A DNA stretch of 64,000 bases from positions 4,513 to 68,512 of the forward strand of contig JAICEW010000001.1 of the NCBI GenBank assembly GCA_025923995.1, given 5' to 3'. Position numbers and translations under genes: made by a program. The notes beneath the pieces are model-generated. The model ran no database searches. It had not been told where the DNA came from and saw nothing but the letters and a program-made list of their open reading frames with translations. How positions within the stretch are numbered: the stretch's first letter is position 1; each line of letters opens with the position of its first letter. Positions 25,328-37,867 of the stretch are shown one piece after another. The DNA is from Vicinamibacteria bacterium. GTDB lineage: Bacteria; Acidobacteriota; Vicinamibacteria; Fen-336.

Positions 25328-26224
25328 TCAGAACGCGGCGGGGTAGCAGGTCGAGCGGTACGAGCCCTCGCCGCGGCGCACGTTGCCCTCGGCGGTGGAG
25401 ATGTCGTAGTGCTCGGAGAACGTGTTGGCGTTCTTGACCACCAGCTCCTCGCCGTCGTGGCGCGAGCAGTAGCCGGCGCTCTTGAGGGCCTCGACCACGT
25501 AGTTGTCGTAGGCGGTCACGTTGACGATCTCGTACCAGCCTTCGGCGGGCTGCTTCCCGCCCAGGTTGAACACCTCGGGGTGCTCCCGCACGACCTTGTT
25601 GATGGCCGTCTCCACCGCGGCCAGGTGCGTGGAGCGCTCGCGGCCGCAGGTGACCTCGATGCTGTGGGGCAGCTCGCACCCGTTCTTCGGCGGATAACCG
25701 CGCGGCGCGCCCGGGAACGACGCCGGCGTGCAGGTGGCGCGATAGGAGGAGTCCCCGCGGCGGAGGATCAGGTCCGACGTGATCATGTGCCACTGCTCGC
25801 TGAAGGAGTCGGTGTTCTTCATCCCGACCTCCTCGCCGTCGAACTGCGCGCAGATCCCCCGCTGGTCCATCTTCTGCAGGAAGGCGACGTAGAACTGGCC
25901 GGTGCTCCTGACGCGCAGGCCGCCGTCGCTGTTCTCGAAGATCCCCGGCTTCTCCCGGATCAGCTCGCTCAGCACGGCGTCCACGTCGGTCATGAAGTTG
26001 GGCGACGTGCGCGAGCAGTTGCCCTCCCGTCCGGCGCCGAGCCTCGCGCAGGAGGACGCGCCCGGAATCGGGTCGAACGGCGGCGGCGTCGGCGTCGCTG
26101 CCACCTGGGGCGGCGACGTCACCGGCGGCGGGTTGTTCGTGACGTTGTTGTTGTCGCTGCCGCCACCGCAGGCCGACAGCAAGAGGAGGGAAGCGGCCGT
26201 GGCCGCGTACGCGCTACGGTTCAT
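25328..26224 (-). CDS. lipoprotein with an internally duplicated ~100-aa Cys-containing domain
   Basis: Lipobox LLLLSAC, then a Pro/Thr-rich linker. Two homologous halves, each ending ...GEE(V/L)..KN..(S/T)FSE......T......RRG..SYR(A/S)TC.PA(S/A)F. ATG 26224 with GGAAGG RBS. Confidence 0.6.
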   Translation of the reverse strand: MNRSAYAATAASLLLLSACGGGSDNNNVTNNPPPVTSPPQVAATPTPPPFDPIPGASSCARLGAGREGNCSRTSPNFMTDVDAVLSELIREKPGIFENSDGGLRVRSTGQFYVAFLQKMDQRGICAQFDGEEVGMKNTDSFSEQWHMITSDLILRRGDSSYRATCTPASFPGAPRGYPPKNGCELPHSIEVTCGRERSTHLAAVETAINKVVREHPEVFNLGGKQPAEGWYEIVNVTAYDNYVVEALKSAGYCSRHDGEELVVKNANTFSEHYDISTAEGNVRRGEGSYRSTCYPAAF

Positions 26225-26342
26225 GAAACAATGCCTTCCAGTCTGCGCCGCGACACATCGGTCCAGCGGTGCGTAAATCGGCGTGGATTATAGAGAAAAC
26301 CCCCGGCAGTGGCAAGTGCCGGTTCCTGGAGCCGTGAGCCTG

Positions 26343-27329
26343 ATGCGCGCTGTCCTCCAACGTCTCGCCCTCGCCGCGCTCGCGACGGCCGTCGCGGGGG
26401 CGCGCGCCGCCGATGCCCCGCCGACGCCCTCCCCGGTGGCGCCGCCAGAGCCCATGGCTCGCGTCGAGCAGTTCGTCGTGCGCGACGTCGTCCAGGCGGA
26501 CGGGAGCGTGGTGCGCTCGGAGGACGTGGTCGTGCAGGTGCACACCGCGATGGCGGTCAGCGCCTTCGGACAGGTCCCCGTGCCCTACGTCGACGGCTAC
26601 GGCGAGGTGACGCCGGGGGACCTGCCGGGCGCGGCCGCGGTGGCACGGGAGGCCGCCCCCCGCCTGTACGCCCATCTCGACGCCGATGATCCGACGCGCT
26701 TCGACGATCCCGCGCGGGAGCGCTTCGTGCTGGTGGTGGGAGAAGCGTGGCGCCTGCAGGGCGCGGCGGCGTTCGCGGCCGGCGACCGGGCCGCGGCCGA
26801 GCGCTACCTGGCCGCGGCCTGGCAGCTGGCCGGGACCCCTGACGGCGCGGTCGATCTGGCCCGACTCCGGCAGGCCCAGGGCCGCCACGAGGAGGCGATC
26901 GACGCCCTGCACCAGGCGTCGTACCTGCCCGCGTGGCGCGCCAACACGGCGAAGGTCGAGCTGGAGCGTGTCGTCACCGACGCGGGGCGGCGCCAGGAGG
27001 TCCTCGGCACCTCCCGCCGGGAGAAGGGGAAGCGCCACCTCTTCGACGTTCCGGGCGAGGCCCCGCCCGGCGGCGCGCAGCTCCGGCTGAAGCTGCTCGT
27101 CGACCAGCGCGGCCGGATCGTCGACGTCCGCGCCGCGCAGCCGGCGGACGCGGCGGCCCTCGATGCGTGGCGGGCGCGCGTCCTGCAGACGGCGCTACCC
27201 GCTTTCGACGTCGACGGCGCCGCGTTCAAGCTGGTACGGGCGGCGACGCTCAAGTGCGCCGCGGATCATGGCTGCCGGCTGGGCCTCAGCTACTACGGCG
27301 ACGAGGTGGCGACGGTCCTGGAGCGCTGA
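26343..27329 (+). CDS. secreted hypothetical protein with a TPR-like segment; translationally coupled to xthA
   Basis: Start ATG 26343 (MRAVLQRLALAALATAVAGARA). Its stop TGA overlaps the xthA ATG (TGATG at 27327-27331). Confidence 0.5.
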   Translation: MRAVLQRLALAALATAVAGARAADAPPTPSPVAPPEPMARVEQFVVRDVVQADGSVVRSEDVVVQVHTAMAVSAFGQVPVPYVDGYGEVTPGDLPGAAAVAREAAPRLYAHLDADDPTRFDDPARERFVLVVGEAWRLQGAAAFAAGDRAAAERYLAAAWQLAGTPDGAVDLARLRQAQGRHEEAIDALHQASYLPAWRANTAKVELERVVTDAGRRQEVLGTSRREKGKRHLFDVPGEAPPGGAQLRLKLLVDQRGRIVDVRAAQPADAAALDAWRARVLQTALPAFDVDGAAFKLVRAATLKCAADHGCRLGLSYYGDEVATVLER

Positions 27330-28207
27330 TGCGGATCGCGACCTGGAACGTGAACTCGCTGAGGGCGCGCCTGGACAAGGTGCGCTGGTGGCTGGACCGC
27401 GCGCGGCCCGACGTCCTCATGATGCAGGAGACCAAGCTCGCCGACGCGGACGCCCCCGCGGCCGCCTTCCGCGACGCGGGGTACGAGCTGGCGCATCACG
27501 GCGAGGGCCGCTGGAACGGCGTCGCCATCGCCAGCCGCTGTGGCGTCTCGGACGTGGTCACGAACTTCGGCCTGCCCCTGCAGCCGGCGCGCACCGAGGA
27601 CCAGGGCGACGACGAGCCCCTGGCCGAGGCGCGCATGATCGCGGCCCGCTGCGCGGGCGTGCGCGTGGTGTCCATCTACGCGCCCAACGGCCGCGTGGTC
27701 GGCTCGCCGTTCTACGAGGCGAAGCTCGTCTGGTACGACCGGCTCGCGCGCTGGTTCGCGGAGGCGGCCTCGCCCGAGGACGCGCTGGTGCTGGGGGGCG
27801 ACTTCAACGTCGCTCCCACCGACGAGGACGTCTGGGACCCGCGCGCCTGCCACGGCGGCACGCACGTCTCGCCCGAGGAGCGCACCGCGTTCGCGCGGCT
27901 GGGCGCCTGGGGCCTCCAGGACGCGTACCGGCACCATCGGACCGAGCCGGGCCGCTACACGTGGTGGGACTATCGCGCGGGCAACTTCCACAAGAACTTC
28001 GGCATGCGCATCGACCACCTGCTGACGACGCCTCCGCTGCTCGCGCGGACGGTCTGGGCCGAGATCGACCGCGAGGCGCGCAAGGGCAAGCCGATCCCGT
28101 CCGACCACGCGCCGCTCCTGATCGACGTGGACGAGCCGGGCCATCCCTTCGACGCGGGCTGGAGCTCCGCGGAGGGCCGCATCGCCGCCCGGCGGGCCAA
28201 GGGCTGA
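27329..28207 (+). CDS. xthA: exodeoxyribonuclease III (AP endonuclease, EEP family)
   Basis: MRIATWNVNSLRARL...MMQETK...DFNVAP...SDHAPL: classic ExoIII signature across the full length. Confidence 0.85.
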   Translation: MRIATWNVNSLRARLDKVRWWLDRARPDVLMMQETKLADADAPAAAFRDAGYELAHHGEGRWNGVAIASRCGVSDVVTNFGLPLQPARTEDQGDDEPLAEARMIAARCAGVRVVSIYAPNGRVVGSPFYEAKLVWYDRLARWFAEAASPEDALVLGGDFNVAPTDEDVWDPRACHGGTHVSPEERTAFARLGAWGLQDAYRHHRTEPGRYTWWDYRAGNFHKNFGMRIDHLLTTPPLLARTVWAEIDREARKGKPIPSDHAPLLIDVDEPGHPFDAGWSSAEGRIAARRAKG

Positions 28208-29277
28208 TGGCGTTCACGATCGCGCCGCCGGTCGAGCCCATGCTGGCCAAGCTCACCGACGCCCTGCCGCCGGGCGACGGCTGGCTGTTCGAGCCCAAGT
28301 GGGACGGGTTCCGCGCGATCGTGTTCAAGGACGGCGACGAGGTGTACATCCAGAGCCGGGACCTCAAGCCCTTCAACCGCTACTTCCCCGACGTCGAGGA
28401 GATCCTGCGCGCGTCGCTGCCCCCGCGCGTGGTGGTGGACGGCGAGATCGTGATCGCGACGCCCGGCGGTCTCGACTTCGACGCGCTGCAGCTCCGCATC
28501 CATCCTGCGGCTTCGCGCGTCCAGAAGCTGGCGGCGGAGATGCCCGCCTCTTTCGTCGCGTTCGACCTGCTGGCGGAGGGCGACGCGGACCTCTGCGGCG
28601 TCCCGCTCTCGGTGCGGCGCGAGCGGCTCTCGCGTGCGCTCGCGTCGGTGGCCGGGCGCGTGCACGTGACGCCGTGCAGCCGCGACCGCGCGGTGGCGGC
28701 GGAGTGGTTCGAACACTTCGAGGGCGCGGGGCTCGACGGCGTCATCGCCAAGCACGAGTCGCTCACGTACCAGCCGGGCAAGCGCGCGATGGTGAAGGTC
28801 AAGCACGTGCGCACCGCGGACTGCGTGGTGGCCGGCTTCCGCTGGCACAAGAACGGGCCGGGCACGCTGATCGGGTCGCTGCTGCTCGGCCTATTTGACG
28901 CCGACGGCCGCCTCCATCACGTCGGCGTGACCTCCTCCTTCCCGATGGCGGAGCGCCGCCGGCTGGCCTCCGAGCTCCAGCCGCTGCGGGAGAACGCGCT
29001 CGACGCCCACCCCTGGCGCGAGTGGGCGCGGATGATGGACGGGCACCAGCGCATGCCCGGGATGCAGAGCCGCTGGAGCGCCGGCAAGGACCTCTCGTGG
29101 GAGCCCCTGCGCATCGAGCGGGTGTGCGAGGTGAAGTACGACCACCTGCAGGGCGACCGCTTCCGCCACGCGGCCGTCTTCCTGCGCTGGCGGACGGACA
29201 AGGCGCCCGCGGACTGCCGCTACGACCAGCTCGAAGTGGTGGCGCCCGCGGAGCTGAACGAGCTCTTCGGGACCTAG
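28207..29277 (+). CDS. ligD: ATP-dependent DNA ligase (LigD ligase-domain type, stand-alone)
   Basis: Adenylation motif EPKWDGFRAI (KxDG). OB-fold C-terminus. Start ATG overlaps the xthA TGA (TGATG at 28205-28209). Confidence 0.8.
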   Translation: MAFTIAPPVEPMLAKLTDALPPGDGWLFEPKWDGFRAIVFKDGDEVYIQSRDLKPFNRYFPDVEEILRASLPPRVVVDGEIVIATPGGLDFDALQLRIHPAASRVQKLAAEMPASFVAFDLLAEGDADLCGVPLSVRRERLSRALASVAGRVHVTPCSRDRAVAAEWFEHFEGAGLDGVIAKHESLTYQPGKRAMVKVKHVRTADCVVAGFRWHKNGPGTLIGSLLLGLFDADGRLHHVGVTSSFPMAERRRLASELQPLRENALDAHPWREWARMMDGHQRMPGMQSRWSAGKDLSWEPLRIERVCEVKYDHLQGDRFRHAAVFLRWRTDKAPADCRYDQLEVVAPAELNELFGT

Positions 29278-30701
29278 CTCTTCTTCGCTTCTCGGCGGGC
29301 CTTGGCCTTGGCGCGCTGGCTCTGCTTCCAGGCCGCGACCTGCTCTTCCGTGAAGGTCTGGCCGGCCCAGGGGTCGTAATCGGACTCGAGCGCTTCCTGG
29401 GGCGGCCGCTTCTCCTCGGGCACGTGCTCGAGGTTCACGCGCACGCGGTACCAGACGGACGAGCGGCCGCGCATCCCGTCCACCAGGTAGTCCTTCTCCT
29501 GGAGGTGCGCGGCGGCCTCGGGGTGCTTCGCCTTCCACCGCTCGAGCCCGCTGAGCGCGTCCTCCTTCTTCTGCGCCTTGGCGATCTCGAGCAGCGGCTT
29601 GGTGGAGACGCGCCGGCCGGTCGGGCCCTTGGCGCGCTTGCTGGGCTGCACGCGCGGCGGCTCGCCCGCCTGCTTCTGGTAGTGCGGCGGCCAGGGCGCG
29701 TCGCCCTGCCCTTCGGCTTCCTGCTTCGCGGACAGCTCCAGCAGCGGCTCGAGCGAGCAGGGATGCGCGTCGATGTCGGCGTGGCGGTCGCCGATCTCCG
29801 CGAACCGCTTCGGCATCGTGCGCAGCGTGAAGTCGCCCGGATCGCAGGCGTCGAGCTCCGGCCAGGTCACGGGCGCGGAGACGCGCGCGTCGGGCTTCGG
29901 GCGCACCGAGTACGCGCTGCAGACGGTGCGGTCCTTCGCGTTCTGGTTGTAGTCGAGGAACACCCCGTGCCGCTCCTCCTTCCACCACTTGCTGGTGGCG
30001 ATGGCGGGGGCTCGCCGTTCGACCTCCCTGGCGATCGCGAGCGCGGCCCGGCGGACCTTTTCGAAGCTCCACCTGGGGTGGATGCGGATGTTGATGTGGA
30101 TGCCGCGCGAGCCGGACGTCTTGGGCCAGCCGACCAGCTTCAGGTCGGCGAGGACCTCGTGGACGACGCGCGCGACCGCCTGGAGCTGCGGCCACTCGAC
30201 GCCCGGCACCGGATCGAGGTCGACGCGCAGCTCGTCGGGGTGGTCGAGGTGGTCGGCTCGCACCGGATGCGGATGCAATTCGAGGCACCCCAGGTTCGCC
30301 ATCCACGCCAGCGCGGCCGCGCTCCTGGGCACGACCTCCTCCGCGATCCGTCCGGAGGGGAACTTGAGCGCGATCACGTCCACGAAGTCCGGACGCTTCT
30401 CGGGCGCGCGCTTCTGGTAGAAGAACTCGCCGTGGATGCCGTTCGCGTAGCGCACGAGCACGTTGGGCCGCCCGCCCGCGTGCCTGAGCGCGCCCTCCGC
30501 GACGCTCAGGTAGTACTGCACGACCTCGAGCTTCGTGATGCCGGCCTCGGGGAAGTACACCTTGTCGGGGTTGGTGACGGTCACGTCGTGCCCGGCGACG
30601 TGGAGGACGGTCGAGGGAGACTTGGACGGCACGCTCGCAGCATACGGCAGGCGCGTGGCGTCTCGCTGTAGAGTCTCGCGCATGAAACGACTCGCACTCA
30701 T
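29274..30701 (-). CDS. NHEJ primase-polymerase (LigD PolDom-like, stand-alone) with a Lys/Glu-rich C-terminal tail
   Basis: LHVAGHDVTVTNPDKVYFPEAGITKLEVVQYYLSVAEG...GRPNVLVRYANG..FYQKRAP...LELHPH...KTSGSRGIHI. Start ambiguous: ATG 30701 (GAGAGGA upstream) or ATG 30683. The stop shares CTAG with the ligase stop. Confidence 0.75.
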   Translation of the reverse strand: MSASRFMRETLQRDATRLPYAASVPSKSPSTVLHVAGHDVTVTNPDKVYFPEAGITKLEVVQYYLSVAEGALRHAGGRPNVLVRYANGIHGEFFYQKRAPEKRPDFVDVIALKFPSGRIAEEVVPRSAAALAWMANLGCLELHPHPVRADHLDHPDELRVDLDPVPGVEWPQLQAVARVVHEVLADLKLVGWPKTSGSRGIHINIRIHPRWSFEKVRRAALAIAREVERRAPAIATSKWWKEERHGVFLDYNQNAKDRTVCSAYSVRPKPDARVSAPVTWPELDACDPGDFTLRTMPKRFAEIGDRHADIDAHPCSLEPLLELSAKQEAEGQGDAPWPPHYQKQAGEPPRVQPSKRAKGPTGRRVSTKPLLEIAKAQKKEDALSGLERWKAKHPEAAAHLQEKDYLVDGMRGRSSVWYRVRVNLEHVPEEKRPPQEALESDYDPWAGQTFTEEQVAAWKQSQRAKAKARREAKKS

Positions 30702-31083
30702 CGGGCTGGTGATCCTCTCGGGCTGCCGGGCGCCCGAGGACGCCCTCGTCTCGAGCTGCACCACGTCGGTGCTGTCGCTCAGCACCGAGTGCAAGCTGAG
30801 GGCGACGAAGCTGCCGGCGGTGCGGAGCTCCTGGATCGACGCCAACACCAAGAACTTCAAGGTGCGCGTCTCCGGGACGTTCTCGGTGCAAAAGGGCCGG
30901 GTGACCGTGACGCTCCCCGGTTGCAGGGAGGGAGGCAGTGCCGAGGCGACCGCCGCGCGCCCGGCGTCGCTCGAGTGCGATGCCGCGATCAGCCGCTCCG
31001 ACTTCACCTTCGCGGTGCGAGCGAGTCCCGTCGACGGGGTCGCGGAGGGCTTTGCAGGACAGCTGAGCTTCAAGCCGATCTGA
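30682..31083 (+). CDS. small lipoprotein (133 aa)
   Basis: MKRLALIGLVILSGC lipobox. GC3-rich real-gene codon usage; mixed composition (K, F, I). Its ATG (30682-30684) overlaps the alternative ATG of the divergent PolDom gene within CATG. Occupies the spurious N-terminal extension of ORF 29274-31235. Confidence 0.5.
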   Translation: MKRLALIGLVILSGCRAPEDALVSSCTTSVLSLSTECKLRATKLPAVRSSWIDANTKNFKVRVSGTFSVQKGRVTVTLPGCREGGSAEATAARPASLECDAAISRSDFTFAVRASPVDGVAEGFAGQLSFKPI

Positions 31084-31119: not shown

Positions 31120-31725
31120 CTACCGCGGGAATCCGAAGCTGACTCCCAGCGTCGCGCGCCAGAAGCCGTAGTCCTCGGAACGAATGCCGTCGGGCTCGTC
31201 TTCGTCGGCCAGCGCGCGGAAGTACCGCAGGTCACCTCGAAGCCCCACGCGCCGGCTCAGCGCGAACATCACGCCGCCGCCGGCGTCGAATGCGAGGTCG
31301 TCCTGGTCCCTGGACGGCTCATTGGTCCAGGCGTGCACCAGCCCGAACCCGGCTGACCCGTAGGGTCGCCACTTCGGCGCGCTTGGAATGCGAATGGGCA
31401 CCACCACGTTGGCCATGAAGCCCATGGCGTCGGTGTTGATGTCCTTGCAGGGCCCCGGCATCCCGGTGCAGTTGGGCGGAGCCGCCGGGTCCAGCGGGAC
31501 GACCTCGGAATCCTTGAAGAAGTGCTGGTACCGCTGGAGATCGAGCTCGAACCCGAGCCAGCCGCCGAACCAGGCGATGGTACCGCCGGGCCCCCCTTTG
31601 CCGTGCTCGACGTCGCCTGCCACGTTCAACCCGAGTTGCGGCGTGATCACCCACTGCGCTTGCGCCGGCGCCGTCAACCAGACGACGACCGGAACCGTGA
31701 GAAGAACCGAGCGATATCGGGCCAC
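31120..31725 (-). CDS. outer-membrane beta-barrel-like protein (201 aa)
   Basis: GTG start at 31725 (VARYRSVLLTVPVVVWLTAPAQAQ signal peptide, AQA|QW cleavage). Alternating amphipathic strands, Gly/aromatic-rich, C-terminal ...LGVSFGFPR. Confidence 0.5.
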   Translation of the reverse strand: MARYRSVLLTVPVVVWLTAPAQAQWVITPQLGLNVAGDVEHGKGGPGGTIAWFGGWLGFELDLQRYQHFFKDSEVVPLDPAAPPNCTGMPGPCKDINTDAMGFMANVVVPIRIPSAPKWRPYGSAGFGLVHAWTNEPSRDQDDLAFDAGGGVMFALSRRVGLRGDLRYFRALADEDEPDGIRSEDYGFWRATLGVSFGFPR

Positions 31726-31904
31726 CGATTCACCCCGTCGTCGCCACTCGCCCCTCTCGGGCGACGGTCGGGCGTGTATGCAGCCCTGATGCCGTCGGAC
31801 ACCTGTGGTGCAGGCCTGGCAAGCCGACGACTGGCTCCCGGTGTTGTCCACACGGGACGACGTCAGCGATCTCACGCTGACCACCCGAGATGACAGCCGC
31901 TCTT

Positions 31905-31985: not shown

Positions 31986-33656
<1,671 letters not shown>

Positions 33657-33689: not shown

Positions 33690-35447
33690 TTACAGGCCCG
33701 CGATCTGGCGGGCGATCTCGTTCTTCTCGCGCAGCAGCTCGTCCTCACGCCCGTCCCGGGCGGCGGCGATCTGCTGGCGCAGCGCGCTCAGGCGCGACTC
33801 CAGCTCCAGGCGGCGCAGCTCACGAACGCACTCGGCGGGGCTGACGCCGCTCCCCGGCGCCGCCTCCACGGCCACTTCGGTCACGATGCGTCGCGCGTCC
33901 TCGTCCGGCAGGGCTTCCAGCAGGGCCGACGCGCTCACGGCCGCGCCGGACGCCGTGAGGCGCTTGGCCGCGGCCAGCACGTCCCCCGCGCCGAGGCGGG
34001 CCAGGCTCTCGTCCGGCAGCGCCTGCAGGGCGTCGGCGATCCCCTCGGCGCTCGTCACCGTCAGCGACACCAGCCAGCGCTCCGCGGGCAGCAGCCGTGC
34101 GCGCGTCGGGGAGGCGGGCGGCGGTGCGCTGGGCTCCGGCAGCGTCATGCGGTCGCGTCCCGCGGTGAGCGCACGCCGCAGCTCCTCCTGCGCCGCGCGC
34201 TCGTCCAGTCCGCCCGCCTCCACGATCGCGGGCATCCAGGCCGCGCGCTCCACCGCGCTCTCGATGCGCGCGACGCTCGGCAGCAGCGCGGCCAGGAACG
34301 CCGCCTTGCCCGCCGGCGTCCGGGTGTCGTTCTCGGCCGCCGCGCGTCGGATCAGCCACTCCATGTAGCCGGGCGCCTCGTCCAGGCGACGCCGGTACGC
34401 GTCCGCGCCGAACTGCTTCAGGAAGCTGTCGGGGTCGTGCCCCTCCGGCAGCTCGACCACCTGCACCTTGAAGCCCTCTTCCAGCAGGATGTCGAGCCCC
34501 TTGCGCGCGGCGCGCTGGCCGGCCGCGTCCTGGTCGAAGTTCACGACCACGTGGTCGGTGAAGCGGCGCAGCAGCCGCGCGTGCGCGGGCGTCAGCGCGG
34601 TGCCGCAGGTGGCGACGGCGCCCTCGACTCCCGCCTCCAGCGCGCGGGCGACGTCGAGGTAGCCCTCCATCAGCACCGCGCGCCCGTCCTTGCGGATCGC
34701 GTCCTTGGCCCAGTGCAGGCCGTAGAGCACCCGGCTCTTCTGGTAGACGGGCCCCTCGGGCGAGTTCAGGTACTTCGGCTCCGAGCCGTCCAGGCTGCGC
34801 GCGCCGAACGCGACCACCTTGCCGCCCTCCGCGAAGATGGGGAACACGGCCCGGCTGCGGAACCGGTCGTAGAGGCGGTCGGTGCCTTCCTTCTGCACCA
34901 CCAGCCCGACGGTCTTGAGCGCGGCCTCCGGGAAGCGTCGCTTCATCGCGTCGAGCAGGTCGGTCCAGCCTTCCCGTGCCGCCCCGGCGCGGATGCGCTC
35001 CAGCGTCTCCTGCTTGAACCCGCGGCCCAGCAGGTACTCCCGCGCCTTCTCCCCGGGAGCCGTCCAGAGATGACGCGTGAAATGCTGGGCGGCCGCCTCG
35101 AGCAGCCCCAGCAATTCCTCGCGCTCCTTGCGGTCGGCCCCGCCGTCCCACCGGCTCTCCGGGACGGTCAGCCCGAAGTGCTTCGCCACCAGCTCGATCG
35201 ACTCGGGGAAGCCGACGCGCTCGTGCAGCATCACGAACTTGAACACGTCGCCGCCCTGGCCGCAGCCGAAGCAGTGGAACACCGGCGGCTCCTGGCGAAC
35301 GGTGAACGAGGGGGTCTTCTCGTTGTGGAACGGGCACAGCCCCTTCCAGGACGCGCCCGCCTTGCGCAGGGCGACGTGCTCCGAGATGTAGCGGACGATG
35401 TCCGCCGTGCGGCGGACCTCCTCGACGAAGGAATCGGGCAGCGCCAT
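33690..35447 (-). CDS. dnaG: DNA primase
   Basis: Zinc-ribbon CPFHNEKTPSF...HCFGCG and a TOPRIM region. Start ATG 35447 lies 2 nt after the mutS2 stop. The 1292-aa ORF-track ORF is a read-through in another frame of mutS2. Confidence 0.9.
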   Translation of the reverse strand: MALPDSFVEEVRRTADIVRYISEHVALRKAGASWKGLCPFHNEKTPSFTVRQEPPVFHCFGCGQGGDVFKFVMLHERVGFPESIELVAKHFGLTVPESRWDGGADRKEREELLGLLEAAAQHFTRHLWTAPGEKAREYLLGRGFKQETLERIRAGAAREGWTDLLDAMKRRFPEAALKTVGLVVQKEGTDRLYDRFRSRAVFPIFAEGGKVVAFGARSLDGSEPKYLNSPEGPVYQKSRVLYGLHWAKDAIRKDGRAVLMEGYLDVARALEAGVEGAVATCGTALTPAHARLLRRFTDHVVVNFDQDAAGQRAARKGLDILLEEGFKVQVVELPEGHDPDSFLKQFGADAYRRRLDEAPGYMEWLIRRAAAENDTRTPAGKAAFLAALLPSVARIESAVERAAWMPAIVEAGGLDERAAQEELRRALTAGRDRMTLPEPSAPPPASPTRARLLPAERWLVSLTVTSAEGIADALQALPDESLARLGAGDVLAAAKRLTASGAAVSASALLEALPDEDARRIVTEVAVEAAPGSGVSPAECVRELRRLELESRLSALRQQIAAARDGREDELLREKNEIARQIAGL

Positions 35448-35449
35448 CC

Positions 35450-37867
35450 CTATTCCTTGAGCTCCACGACCGTCACCCCGCCGCGTCCCTCCGCCCCCAC
35501 GCGGAACGAGGCCACGTGCGGGTGGCCGTCCAGGAACTGCGCGACCGCCTTGCGCAGGCGTCCGGCGCCGAAGCCGTGGATGACCCGCAGCTCCTTGCGG
35601 TCGGAGAGGGCGGCGTCGTCCAGCAGCTTGTCGACGCGCGGCAGCGCCTCGTCCACGGTCAGGCCCACCAGGTTGATCTCGGCCGGGACCGCGGGACGCA
35701 TGCCCTTGGCGGGCCCCTCGACGCGCGCCGTCTTCGGCGCCGCGCCCGCGAGCGCGATCAGCTCCGCCCGCGGGACGCGGAGGCGCTTGCCGCTCACGGC
35801 CAGCTCCACGTCGTCGCCGGCGAGCGCCATCACGTCGCCCACCACGCCCAGCGAGCGGACGCGCGCGCGTCCTCCCACCGCCAGCGGGGTCTCGGCCGCG
35901 GCAGGCTCGGGGGCCGCCTCGGCTCCATCCAGCCCCTGAGGCGCCAGCGCCTCGCTGCGCGCTTCCCGGATGGCGGTGACCGCCTCGCTGCGCGCCCGGG
36001 CCGCCGCCGTCCTGGCCGGACGCGCGGCCTGCTCCTCGAGCTTGCGCACGGCGGCCGCGATCGCGTCCGCCGCCTGCCGCGCGAGCAGCTCCGCCCGGCG
36101 GTCCAGCTCCTTGTGGAAGGACTCGATCTCCTTGCGCCGGCGCACGGCCATCGCCTGCTCGACGTCGCGCTGGCGCACGCGCTCGTCGTGCAGCTCGGAC
36201 TGCTCGTGGGCCAGCCGCGCCTGGTCGTGGCGCAGGCGCGCCTGTTCCGTCTCCAGCTGCTTGAGGAGCGCTTCCGCCTGCGCGTCCTTGCGGTCGAGGC
36301 GCGTGCGCGCGTCGGCCACGACGGAGGGCTCGAGGCCGAGGCGTTCCGCCATCTCCAGGGCCAGGCTCCGGCCGGCCACGCCCAGCGCCAGCCGATACGT
36401 GGGCTCGTAGGTGGCCGGGTCGTACCCGAAGGAGGCGCACGCGACGTCCGGCGTCGACTGCGCATAGGCCTTGAGCAGGCCGTGGTGCGTGGTCGCGACC
36501 ACCATCGCGCCGCGCACGCGGAAGTGATCGACCACGGCGGTCCCCAGCGCGCCGCCCTCGGCCGGGTCGGTGCCCGCGCCCACCTCGTCCAGCAGCACGA
36601 GCGCGGGCGTCTGCAGGTCGCGCGTCATCTCCACGATGCCCGCCAGGTGCGCGGAGAAGGTCGAGAGGTTGGCCGCGATCGACTGCTCGTCGCCGATGTC
36701 GGCGAAGACCCGCTTGAACACCGGCAGCACGCTGCCCTCGGCCGCGGGCACGTGCAGGCCGCACTGCGCCATGAGCGCCAGCAGGCCGACCGTCTTGAGC
36801 GCGACCGTCTTGCCGCCCGTGTTGGGCCCGCTGATCACGAGCACCGGCTTGCCGAAGCCGACCGTGATGCTGACCGGCACCGGCTCGCGCGTCGTGCGGC
36901 GCTGCAGGCCCAGCCGCTCGACCAGCACCGGCATCAGCAGCGGATGGCGCGCGTCGCGCAGGTCCAGGTCCAGGTGTCCCTTGTCCGCGATCACGGGGCA
37001 CACCGCGTTCATGTCGCGCGCGCACAGCGCCCGCGCCTGCACCGCGTCCAGCTCGCCCAGGACCTCCACCGTGCGGGCGAGGTCGCGCGACCGGGCGCCC
37101 ACGCGCGACGTCAGGTCGCGCAGGATCCGCACCACCTCGGCCCGCTCCTCCTCCTGCAGCGAGACGATGTCGTTGTTGAGCTCGACCGCCGGCATGGGCT
37201 CGACGAAGAGGCTGGCGCCCGAGCCCGAGCCGCCGTGGATGATCCCGGGGATCTGGCCCCGGTGCTCGGCCTTGAGCAGCAGCACGTAGCGGTCGTTGCG
37301 CGTGGTGACCAGCTTGTCCTGCAGCAGGCGATCGGCGTCCTTGCCGCGGAGGAACCCCTCCATCACGGACTGCAGCTGCGCGCGCAGGCGGGTGAGGGCG
37401 CGTCGCGTCTCCTGCAGCTTGGGGGAGGCGTCGTCCGCCACCTCTCCGGTCGGCAGGATCGCGCGCCGGAGGAGCACCGCCAGGTCGGTCATGTCCGGCA
37501 CGACCGAGGCGTCGCGCGCGAGGCCCGGCGCGCTCTCCACCCGCGCCACGCGCTGGGCGATCTCGCACCCGCCCTCGACGAACGACGCGACGTCGAGCAG
37601 CGCGGCCGGCTCCAGGTGCGCGCCCTCGACCCGCGCGGCCGGGAGCAGGTCGGTCAGGTCCGGCAGGTCGTGGTAGGGCTGCCGCCCGAGGCCACGGAGG
37701 AGGCGGACGCCCTCCGTCGTTTTTTCGAGCGCCTCCCGGACCTCCGCTGGCGTGCTCAGGGGAGAGAGTGTACGGACGCGGTCCCGACCCGCTGCCGAGC
37801 CGGTATGGCTGAGCAGCAGGGCGCGCACGGTCTCGAATTCCAGCGTACGGAAAGTGTTCGCGTTCAC
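35450..37867 (-). CDS. mutS2: endonuclease MutS2 (MutS domains plus C-terminal Smr)
   Basis: Walker A GPNTGGKT, LLDEVGAGTDP, C-terminal Smr (LRVIHGFGAGRLRKAV). GTG start at 37867 with AAAAGG RBS. Confidence 0.9.
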   Translation of the reverse strand: MNANTFRTLEFETVRALLLSHTGSAAGRDRVRTLSPLSTPAEVREALEKTTEGVRLLRGLGRQPYHDLPDLTDLLPAARVEGAHLEPAALLDVASFVEGGCEIAQRVARVESAPGLARDASVVPDMTDLAVLLRRAILPTGEVADDASPKLQETRRALTRLRAQLQSVMEGFLRGKDADRLLQDKLVTTRNDRYVLLLKAEHRGQIPGIIHGGSGSGASLFVEPMPAVELNNDIVSLQEEERAEVVRILRDLTSRVGARSRDLARTVEVLGELDAVQARALCARDMNAVCPVIADKGHLDLDLRDARHPLLMPVLVERLGLQRRTTREPVPVSITVGFGKPVLVISGPNTGGKTVALKTVGLLALMAQCGLHVPAAEGSVLPVFKRVFADIGDEQSIAANLSTFSAHLAGIVEMTRDLQTPALVLLDEVGAGTDPAEGGALGTAVVDHFRVRGAMVVATTHHGLLKAYAQSTPDVACASFGYDPATYEPTYRLALGVAGRSLALEMAERLGLEPSVVADARTRLDRKDAQAEALLKQLETEQARLRHDQARLAHEQSELHDERVRQRDVEQAMAVRRRKEIESFHKELDRRAELLARQAADAIAAAVRKLEEQAARPARTAAARARSEAVTAIREARSEALAPQGLDGAEAAPEPAAAETPLAVGGRARVRSLGVVGDVMALAGDDVELAVSGKRLRVPRAELIALAGAAPKTARVEGPAKGMRPAVPAEINLVGLTVDEALPRVDKLLDDAALSDRKELRVIHGFGAGRLRKAVAQFLDGHPHVASFRVGAEGRGGVTVVELKE

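Follow-up and report, generated by a model that had tools for sequence, protein, structure and literature searches.

The genome of a Vicinamibacteria-like member of the Acidobacteriota encodes an exonuclease III, an ATP-dependent DNA ligase and a primase-polymerase side by side, which raises the question of whether these genes are a LigD-type non-homologous end-joining (NHEJ) enzyme divided into separate parts, as a preliminary description of the locus proposed, or belong to a different repair system. We addressed it in a contiguous stretch of 64 kb around the locus (the window) and in 82 related loci, each with 10 kb of flanking sequence. Neither Rfam models nor tRNAs matched anywhere in the 64-kb window. 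The features considered here are:

26225..26302, no strand: AT-rich intergenic/upstream region, conserved in relatives, in which xthA follows it directly; here followed by ORF A
26343..27329, plus strand: ORF A, 328 aa, N-terminal Sec-like signal peptide (by eye), orphan
27329..28207, plus strand: xthA, exodeoxyribonuclease III, 292 aa, conserved C-terminal extension of ~25 aa
28207..29277, plus strand: ligC, 356 aa, LigC-type ATP-dependent DNA ligase consisting of NTase and OB domains only
29274..30632, minus strand: prim-polC, Prim-PolC-type AEP primase-polymerase, 452 aa with the probable start GTG 30632
29643..29771, minus strand: alpha8/Loop 3 part of prim-polC, aligning with M. smegmatis Prim-PolC residues ~294-336
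29277..29630, minus strand: C-terminal tail of prim-polC, not in the solved M. smegmatis Prim-PolC chains
30682..31083, plus strand: small lipoprotein gene with an LSGC lipobox, 133 aa (from ORF and sequence)

Gene junctions and family affinities of the three enzymes

Direct reading of the sequence bears out the junctions originally described. ORF A and xthA overlap by 1 nt in a TGATG (TGA 27327-27329, ATG 27329-31), as do xthA and the ligase gene (TGA 28205-07, ATG 28207-09), while the CTAG at 29274-29277 combines the TAG of the ligase (29275-77) with that of the convergent, minus-strand polymerase (complement of 29274-76). The synteny comparison that had been called for indicates that these overlaps are not due to chance, since the xthA-ligC overlap (TGATG or GTGA) is kept in all eight loci of the closest LigC clade and the tail-to-tail arrangement of ligC and prim-polC, abutting or overlapping, recurs in 47 of the 82 loci, which are labelled as several phyla; ORF A is not shared. 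Derivation of ligase and polymerase from one frameshifted gene is rejected, as they lie on opposite strands in an arrangement recurrent across phyla. The linkage to xthA is confined to that single LigC clade (8/82 loci) and is therefore not general to the family: when we clustered, across the 82 loci, the ORFs that immediately precede ligC, the only sets to recur were xthA (8 loci), a membrane protein of Chloroflexota (9 loci) and two small, unrelated groups, with no other base-excision repair gene (glycosylase, EndoIV) recurring at this position.

The domain calls made earlier also hold, with matches to Exo_endo_phos/TIGR00633 xth, DNA_ligase_A_M plus A_C, and LigD_Prim-Pol. Profile and structure-database comparisons place the three enzymes more precisely: 1) XthA passes TIGR00633 (239 bits vs 99) and TIGR00195 (207 bits vs 182.55), has Neisseria NExo (2JC4, E 1e-51) as its top PDB match, and retains in its translation the catalytic residues E34 in QETK and the His in SDHAP; AP endonuclease, 3'-phosphatase and 3'-5' exonuclease activities are predicted on this basis. 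Its C-terminal extension, EPGHPFDAGW.SAE.RIAARR, is kept in 8/8 ligC-linked xthA genes. 2) The ligase contains PF01068 (residues 11-199) and PF04679 (residues 220-332) and no other Pfam domain, with K31 (KWDGFR) as motif I. It passes NF006078 at 516.7 bits (cut-off 296), residues 1-354 covering model positions 1-346 of 350, but fails both the NHEJ_ligase_lig model TIGR02779 (148 bits, cut-off 227.75) and the full LigD models (77-147 bits, cut-offs 373-989). NF006078 corresponds to PRK08224, whose CDD label we take to be ligC. LigC enzymes are defined as the catalytic core alone (NTase + OB, ~350 aa), without fused Pol, PE or N-terminal DNA-binding domain (PMC10140301), and the two-domain protein of 356 aa has precisely this composition; further, its genomic partner is the convergent, abutting Prim-PolC-type polymerase and not Ku. 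By domain content and profile score it is a LigC-type core ligase rather than the LigDom of a LigD. 3) The polymerase is 52% identical to M. smegmatis Prim-PolC (PDB 6SA0/5OP0; E 7.5e-104, 351 bits), against E-values of 1e-40 to 1e-47 for the LigD/NHEJ PolDoms (5DMU, 164 bits; M. tuberculosis LigD Pol 2IRU, 142 bits, E 1.7e-40; 2FAO, 118 bits). It matches PF21686 at 283 bits, and its AEP core is intact, with D161, D163 and D250 (475-aa numbering) and SGSRGIH invariant across the homologue alignment. Its score on ligD_pol TIGR02778, a model that does not discriminate Prim-PolC from LigD-Pol, lies just above the cut-off (218.8 vs 214.7 bits), and standard pipelines therefore give it an NHEJ label.

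The feature that sets Prim-PolC apart is an extension comprising alpha8 and Loop 3 (M. smegmatis aa 294-336), which is strictly conserved in that family (PMC5663958, PMC7442782) and of which Loop 3 is required to fill 3-nt gaps (PMC7442782). The alignment of our polymerase with 6SA0 runs unbroken through this extension to chain residue 338 (...GEPPRVQPSK), its final 45 columns being 58% identical. Among the contact residues of Loop 3, P320, K324 and R331 are retained; the "locating pin" N321 is replaced by His, which counts against a function equivalent to that of the mycobacterial enzyme pair. As judged from this alignment, the polymerase is a Prim-PolC orthologue with the family-specific alpha8/Loop 3 extension. 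Translation probably starts at GTG 30632 (452 aa) rather than at ATG 30701 (475 aa), because this is where M. smegmatis Prim-PolC and the majority of homologues start and the upstream residues are unconserved with a pLDDT of ~30.

The locus is thus a variant of the known LigC/Prim-PolC system, in which the ligase operon also encodes an end-cleaning exonuclease III, and its description as a split NHEJ/LigD module is not sustained: the ligase fails TIGR02779 and passes NF006078, and the polymerase carries the Prim-PolC Loop 3.

Excision repair versus end joining

The closest experimental parallel is the mycobacterial LigC/Prim-PolC (PolD1) system (MSMEG_6301/6302/6304 of M. smegmatis, and ligC with the adjoining PolDom gene of M. 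tuberculosis; PDB 5OP0, 6SA0, 6SA1). In M. smegmatis LigC1 binds XthA, ExoIII, EndoIV, FPG and MPG, Prim-PolC binds LigC1 and not Ku, and LigC1 seals nicks with the 3'-ribonucleotide left by Prim-PolC (PMC5663958). In vitro, 8-oxoG and AP sites are repaired by the successive action of FPG or a glycosylase, XthA/ExoIII/EndoIV, Prim-PolC and LigC1 (PMC5663958). The present locus resembles that system in that a standalone NTase+OB ligase adjoins an AEP polymerase with alpha8/Loop 3 and no Ku is linked, and in that XthA, the documented physical and functional partner of LigC1, is encoded together with the other two. It differs in four respects: 1) xthA lies in the ligase operon and is translationally coupled to it, whereas fpg is the only base-excision repair enzyme reported in the mycobacterial operon, where in some mycobacteria it accompanies ligC/prim-polC (PMC5663958); 2) the ligase and polymerase genes converge, and their stop codons are shared or overlap; 3) the polymerase has an extra tail of ~118 aa with a beta-alpha-beta-beta domain, and His in place of N321; and 4) the hosts are Acidobacteriota rather than Actinobacteria. 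A LigC-type ligase also invariably lies beside a dedicated PolDom paralogue, apart from the ku-polK locus, in the ligC-polR arrangement of Streptomyces (PMC5124664); exonuclease III linkage is not reported there, and that locus was read as "core NHEJ".

Using tblastn we found no Ku in the 64-kb window (best E 0.95 over 36 aa, with probes validated on Pfam Ku at 180 and 197 bits), in agreement with the initial reading that this neighborhood lacks Ku. Likewise, a LigD_N phosphoesterase (PE) probe that scores 168 bits on PF13298 gave tblastn E-values no lower than 0.46 across the window and the 82 loci, and in none of the 82 loci does Ku or PE occur within 10 kb. Because the documented role of the LigC/Prim-PolC pair is base-excision and short-gap repair, with no binding to Ku, a neighborhood without Ku is expected rather than odd. 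The suggestion that ExoIII serves as 3'-end cleaner for the ligase/polymerase pair agrees with the published biochemistry (PMC5663958), although not its framing as a substitute for a missing LigD phosphoesterase, as the pair is LigC/Prim-PolC, paralogous to the LigD domains. The family identities, the junctions, the conserved arrangement and the lack of Ku and PE together make it likely that the locus corresponds to mycobacterial LigC/Prim-PolC and encodes a module for LigC-dependent excision repair (short-gap repair).

Two other functional readings deserve consideration. The first is dual use, in which the enzymes would act mainly on single-strand gaps but also in Ku-independent or back-up sealing of double-strand breaks, for instance upon desiccation or irradiation of soil bacteria. 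Deletion of ligC renders Streptomyces sensitive to electron-beam irradiation, and strains lacking ligC or polR show a radiation phenotype (PMC5124664); LigC itself has been regarded merely as a back-up ligase for mycobacterial NHEJ (PMC5124664, PMC8068969), and these observations together keep a double-strand-break role conceivable. The related loci are of soil-metagenome origin, and the extra basic C-terminal tail of the polymerase could raise its affinity for DNA ends. However, Loop 3 confines the mycobacterial orthologue to short gaps (PMC7442782), and the coupling to xthA points to processing of AP sites and 3' blocks; we hence consider dual use improbable, if slightly less so than the reading that follows.

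That reading takes the genes as separated LigDom and PolDom of a Ku-dependent NHEJ system, with XthA replacing PE and Ku encoded elsewhere in the genome. It draws on the membership of the polymerase in the LigD_Prim-Pol Pfam family and its marginal TIGR02778 score, on the existence of split NHEJ operons in other species (PMC5663958), and on the same back-up role of LigC and electron-beam sensitivity of Streptomyces (PMC5124664, PMC8068969). Indeed, LigD (PE-Lig-Pol) with Ku and its archaeal and bacterial split forms use the same superfamilies (ATP-dependent ligase and AEP PolDom) and likewise need 3'-end cleaning. Yet that cleaning falls to a phosphoesterase in LigD and to an ExoIII-family AP endonuclease here; the ligase passes the LigC-type equivalog but neither the NHEJ-ligase model nor those for full LigD, the polymerase scores ~350 bits on Prim-PolC against 118-164 on NHEJ PolDoms, and neither Ku nor PE accompanies any of the 82 loci within 10 kb. 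Further, Loop 3 fills the path taken by the in-trans template DNA in the NHEJ enzyme (PMC5663958, PMC7442782), and mycobacterial Prim-PolC does not bind Ku (PMC5663958). Taken together, these points render a Ku-dependent system unlikely.

A candidate pathway and the accessory elements of XthA and Prim-PolC

For the favored excision-repair module, the substrates, order of steps, use of rNTPs and contact between XthA and LigC can be modelled on the mycobacterial experiments. A glycosylase or spontaneous base loss would give rise to an AP site or to a nick with a blocked 3' end. XthA would then incise the AP site and/or strip a 3'-phosphate or 3'-unsaturated aldehyde, and may also nibble in the 3'->5' direction, so that a gap of 1-3 nt with a 3'-OH remains. 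Prim-PolC, anchored on the 5'-phosphate and with the upstream duplex docked on Loop 3, would fill this gap, probably inserting rNMPs when dNTPs are scarce, and LigC would seal the nick. The 1-nt overlap of xthA and ligC implies that the nuclease and its ligase partner would be made together, and prim-polC, which faces ligC tail-to-tail on the opposite strand, would have its own transcript. It counts against this scheme that no dRP-lyase is encoded in the module, since the 5'-dRP must be removed after incision by an AP endonuclease.

A new detail of this locus is a conserved domain of ~85 aa at the C-terminus of Prim-PolC. Within the tail, a beta-alpha-beta-beta domain (~29436-29591) is followed by a basic helix (~29280-29348). 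The tail domain occurs in 559 representative clusters. We tentatively suggest that outside Actinobacteria LigC repair may be a more self-contained machine of three enzymes, in which XthA with its own C-terminal peptide is co-translated with LigC, and the previously undescribed beta-alpha-beta-beta domain and basic tail of Prim-PolC tether it to LigC/XthA or to the DNA flanking the gap; in some lineages the polymerase with its tail would be fused to a PolX-PHP enzyme. Were this so, bacterial excision repair would have in the tail domain a new module for assembly or DNA binding; in any event, this domain and the C-terminal extension of XthA are concrete candidates for interaction mapping.

That LigC/Prim-PolC and end-processing enzymes of the ExoIII type cooperate in excision repair, and not in end joining that depends on Ku, has so far been proposed on the basis of mycobacterial pull-downs and in-vitro reconstitution, and the present locus lends this proposal independent genomic support from a distant phylum. 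Automatic annotation names these genes "non-homologous end-joining DNA ligase" and "bifunctional NHEJ protein LigD", and such labels on LigC/Prim-PolC genes would lead to NHEJ capacity being overestimated for soil Acidobacteriota and for other phyla.

ORF A and the flanking genes

The preliminary description placed a secreted, TPR-like protein at the head of the repair operon. Its position and TGATG coupling stand, and ORF A is probably co-transcribed with xthA-ligC; the TPR matches fall below the Pfam gathering scores (TPR_19, 18.2 bits vs 25; TPR_2, 16.5 vs 27), and ORF A is not a conserved operon member. The signal peptide (MRAVLQRLALAALATAVAGARA/AD) was judged by eye. No homologue was found among 5.8e9 proteins, and the PDB sequence search gave only matches of E>=1. 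In tblastn and blastn searches of the window and the 82 loci, ORF A protein and DNA matched only themselves, and the ORF is therefore without a paralogue or sign of a mobile element. It is missing from the related locus L002 and from contigs carrying the homologue P0001, in which the polymerase is 85-90% identical and the synteny is otherwise alike. Moreover, 26225..26302 is nearly identical to the L002 intergenic stretch between a divergent lipoprotein gene and xthA; the minus-strand TTGCCA-17-TATAAT site in this upstream region serves the divergent gene. By this comparison ORF A is a lineage-specific orphan insertion of ~1.03 kb (26303-27328) between the conserved upstream region and xthA, and we infer no repair role for it. 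That it works in the repair operon, as a regulator or adaptor for instance, is very improbable: its coupling to xthA does match that of xthA to ligC, its codon-position GC (0.84/0.52/0.92, uniform along its length) looks coding and it lies downstream of the conserved upstream region, but it is absent from the close relatives, had no homologue in any search and would be placed outside the cytoplasm by the predicted signal peptide.

An antisense ORF at 26214-27038 was considered as the true gene in place of ORF A and rejected, as its codon register mirrors that of ORF A (GC 0.92/0.52/0.84), its product is rich in Arg and Gly, and it extends over the beginning of the lipoprotein gene. Positions 26324 and 27316 carry an imperfect direct repeat of 21 nt, in which 16/21 nucleotides match; considered as a duplication or insertion scar, it was given no weight, being short, present in two copies with differing frames and without a counterpart in L002. 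At the other end of the locus, the lipoprotein gene at 30682..31083, which had no match in Pfam and NCBIfam searches, is divergent from the polymerase gene, with a gap of 49 bp to the polymerase start. A 133-aa gene occupies the equivalent position in the contigs carrying P0001, and the lipoprotein gene is a neighbor that probably lies outside the repair module.

Identity of the ligase, nuclease and polymerase

The ligase contains the Pfam domains PF01068 and PF04679 of ATP-dependent ligases, and over its full length it passes the curated equivalog NF006078/PRK08224 (516.7 bits; cut-off 296), whereas it fails both the NHEJ-ligase domain model TIGR02779 (148 bits; cut-off 227.75) and every full-length LigD model. 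It consists of NTase and OB domains only, the composition by which LigC is defined in practice (PMC10140301). Judged by these profile matches, it is distinct from the ligase domain of LigD. The xthA product is an exonuclease III (ExoIII; NCBIfam TIGR00633, 239 bits) with a C-terminal extension of ~25 aa past the end of the ExoIII model (residues about 268-292; window 28129-28204). This extension, of consensus EPGHPFDAGW.SAE.RIAARR, is common to all ligC-linked XthA proteins (the window and the related loci L001, L002 and L004-L009), and may be a partner-binding peptide.

The polymerase has a LigD-type Prim-Pol domain (Pfam PF21686, 283 bits), and its best relatives in the PDB are the structures of Mycobacterium smegmatis Prim-PolC (6SA0/6SA1 and 5OP0; E 7.5e-104, 351 bits), with 52% identity over 335 columns. 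The NHEJ polymerase domains (PolDoms) match it far less well: that of Methanocella at 6e-47, M. tuberculosis LigD at 1.7e-40 and P. aeruginosa LigD at 6e-33. Further, the Prim-PolC alignment runs on through the C-terminal α8 helix with Loop 3, the hallmark of Prim-PolC (residues 294-336 in M. smegmatis; in the window ...GDAPWPPHYQKQAGEPPRVQPSK). Among the Loop 3 residues that Brissett et al. (PMC7442782) report to contact DNA, P320, K324 and R331 are kept and N321 is replaced by His. Sequence comparison thus identifies the polymerase as a Prim-PolC orthologue. The preliminary description placed the start of the gene at ATG 30701, which is to be corrected. The start is most likely GTG 30632 (giving 452 aa): this is where M. 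smegmatis Prim-PolC and the majority of homologues start in the alignment, and the 23 residues upstream are unconserved and poorly modelled (pLDDT about 30).

A probable role in excision repair, and the end-joining question

In mycobacteria LigC1 has as partners the base-excision repair (BER) enzymes FPG, MPG, EndoIV, ExoIII and XthA, and Prim-PolC binds LigC1 but does not bind Ku; 8-oxoG and abasic substrates are repaired in a reconstituted reaction by a glycosylase followed by XthA, ExoIII or EndoIV, then Prim-PolC and LigC1, Prim-PolC prefers short gaps and rNTPs, and fpg is co-transcribed with ligC/prim-polC in some mycobacteria (Plocinski et al., PMC5663958). The genes studied here are almost certainly members of this LigC/Prim-PolC family, and the module is likely to function in BER and short-gap repair. 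The earlier reading as a split LigD/NHEJ module is disfavored by the failure of the ligase against TIGR02779 and the LigD models and by the proximity of the polymerase to Prim-PolC. The accompanying proposal that ExoIII cleans 3' ends agrees in substance with the mycobacterial biochemistry, but the activity belongs to excision and gap repair rather than to an NHEJ system without the LigD phosphoesterase (PE).

The reported absence of Ku from the neighborhood was borne out within the 64-kb window by two tblastn probes (best E 0.95 over 36 aa), which had been validated on Pfam Ku (180 and 197 bits); this is to be expected of a LigC/Prim-PolC pair. A validated probe likewise recovered no LigD PE in the window, and neither Ku nor PE occurs within 10 kb in any of 82 ligC loci. 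The module may nonetheless, with lower probability, have a Ku-dependent or back-up end-joining role, as ligC deletion causes a radiation phenotype in Streptomyces (PMC5124664); against this, the features of LigD/Ku NHEJ membership testable here all failed except one PolDom model, which does not discriminate between the Prim-PolC and LigD families.

The locus differs from its mycobacterial counterparts in that xthA lies in the operon and is translationally coupled, ligC and prim-polC are tail-to-tail, and the polymerase bears an extra domain. It is a genomic corroboration of LigC/Prim-PolC excision repair that corrects annotation, and would not surprise a specialist. The polymerase homologues P0001-P0120 are publicly annotated as 'bifunctional non-homologous end joining protein LigD' or 'non-homologous end-joining DNA ligase'. 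Such labels on Prim-PolC orthologues are a systematic mislabeling that would inflate metagenomic counts of NHEJ.

Gene junctions, ORF A and conservation of the module

Direct reading of the sequence (~72% G+C) upheld the overlapping junctions described earlier: the TGA of ORF A (27327-27329) overlaps the xthA ATG (27329-27331), the xthA TGA (28205-28207) overlaps the ligase ATG (28207-28209), and the ligase TAG (29275-77) and the minus-strand polymerase stop (complement of 29274-76) both lie within CTAG 29274-29277. The module is flanked by the following genes:

30682-31083, divergent lipoprotein gene (133 aa), 49 bp from the polymerase start GTG 30632
31120-31884, OMP beta-barrel gene, between the module and rpoD
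31986-33656, minus strand, rpoD, adjoining the module
33693-35480, minus strand, dnaG, adjoining the module
35453-37867, minus strand, mutS2/Smr gene, adjoining the module

The 49-bp spacing recurs in the closest relatives. In L002, a close relative whose polymerase is 86% identical, the order is mutS2-dnaG-rpoD, prim-polC (rightward), ligC and xthA (leftward), a divergent lipoprotein gene and a GSDH-like gene, with the same synteny and the same 4-nt and 1-nt overlaps. As the rpoD/dnaG/mutS2 synteny is shared, the module lies in a core chromosomal region.

ORF A (26343-27329) had been described as a secreted, TPR-like protein heading the repair operon. Its N-terminus does resemble a Sec signal peptide by eye, but all its TPR matches in Pfam are sub-threshold, and it is no conserved operon head: in relatives with polymerases 85-90% identical it is absent, and only 130-189 bp separate the divergent lipoprotein gene from the start of xthA. 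Searches recovered no homologue among 5.8 billion proteins and no significant match in the PDB. Its codon-position G+C (0.84/0.52/0.92), uniform along the ORF, argues for real or recent coding, and it is probably co-transcribed with xthA. In the DNA alignment the intergenic region of L002 is almost identical to window 26180-26302; L002 then has 51 nt before the xthA ATG, and the window ~1.03 kb with ORF A. Hence ORF A is an insertion specific to this lineage, placed between xthA and conserved upstream sequence. The 1.03 kb peculiar to the window has a GC hairpin (26303-26322) at its left edge. The AT-rich segment 26225-26322 is near-identical to L002 while its flanks diverge, and contains a near-consensus minus-strand promoter, TTGCCA-17-TATAAT, for the lipoprotein gene 25328-26224.

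Soil metagenomes are rich in homologues of the polymerase (73-90% identity, about 430-460 aa), one of which is named Vicinamibacteria. A single ligase scan of species-representative genomes recovered 80 loci (65-76% identity) labelled Acidobacteriota, Myxococcota, Binatia, Rokubacteria, Chloroflexota, Gemmatimonadota, Beta-/Gammaproteobacteria and Verrucomicrobia, which with L001 and L002 make up the 82 counted. In 61 of the 82 a homologue of Prim-PolC is encoded within 10 kb, and in 47 it is convergent with ligC, abutting or overlapping it. The convergent 3' overlap is 44-73 nt in about 35 loci (including L013, L020, L039, L059 and L065), most commonly 56 nt (16 loci) or 46 nt (8 loci); in these the polymerase runs antisense through the conserved LigC C-terminus, its TGA opposite the Val-Thr codons of 'QLEVT'. 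The CTAG overlap in the window is the minimal form of this common arrangement.

xthA directly precedes ligC in no more than 8 of the 82 loci, and these have the most similar LigC. All eight show an overlap (TGATG or GTGA), which makes the coupling a conserved feature of this LigC clade. In L001, L007, L008 and L009 a TAnnnT hexamer precedes the start codon of xthA by 6-8 nt, which suggests leaderless xthA-ligC transcripts there. In the Chloroflexota-labelled L035, L036, L054, L064, L068-L070, L079 and L081, the position held by xthA in the window, directly upstream of ligC, is occupied by a gene for a conserved polytopic membrane protein. The loci with the closest LigC/XthA (L003-L009, 74-76% identity) carry the MAG labels Thermodesulfobacteriota, Binatia, 'Deltaproteobacteria', Rokubacteria and Vicinamibacteria, a mixture suggesting either that the module has been transferred horizontally or that the labels are unreliable.

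The C-terminal tail of Prim-PolC

The polymerase extends ~118 residues past Loop 3 (window 29277-29630, minus strand), a tail that the M. smegmatis Prim-PolC chains of known structure (331 and 350 aa) lack. About 85 of its residues are strongly conserved, with 33 invariant positions among 18 homologues and the consensus GRRVSTKPL.EI.RA.KKEDALAGLERWKARHPEAAAHL...DVLVDSMRGRSSTW.RVRVNLEHVPE.LRP.QE. Most of the 61 loci with a polymerase have it, across the phyla named above, and so do the proteins P0121-P0270; an exhaustive profile-free search matched it to 559 representative clusters (E<=1e-3). Among ten longer matches scanned against Pfam, seven have the Prim-Pol domain, none another domain in its place, and one is fused to a PolX-PHP polymerase. 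Modelled by itself in AlphaFold (pLDDT 86), the tail is predicted to form a β-α-β-β unit and, after it, a basic helix; it matches no Pfam family and has no clear structural relative. The tail is an unreported feature of Prim-PolC, and our guess is that it may dock to LigC/XthA or bind flanking DNA. The protein P0181 (895 aa) is a natural fusion of Prim-PolC and the tail domain with a PolX-type polymerase (HhH, pol-beta thumb and PHP phosphoesterase), which provides a second link of Prim-PolC to BER-type enzymes. Another, P0184 (811 aa), combines Prim-Pol with HhH only.
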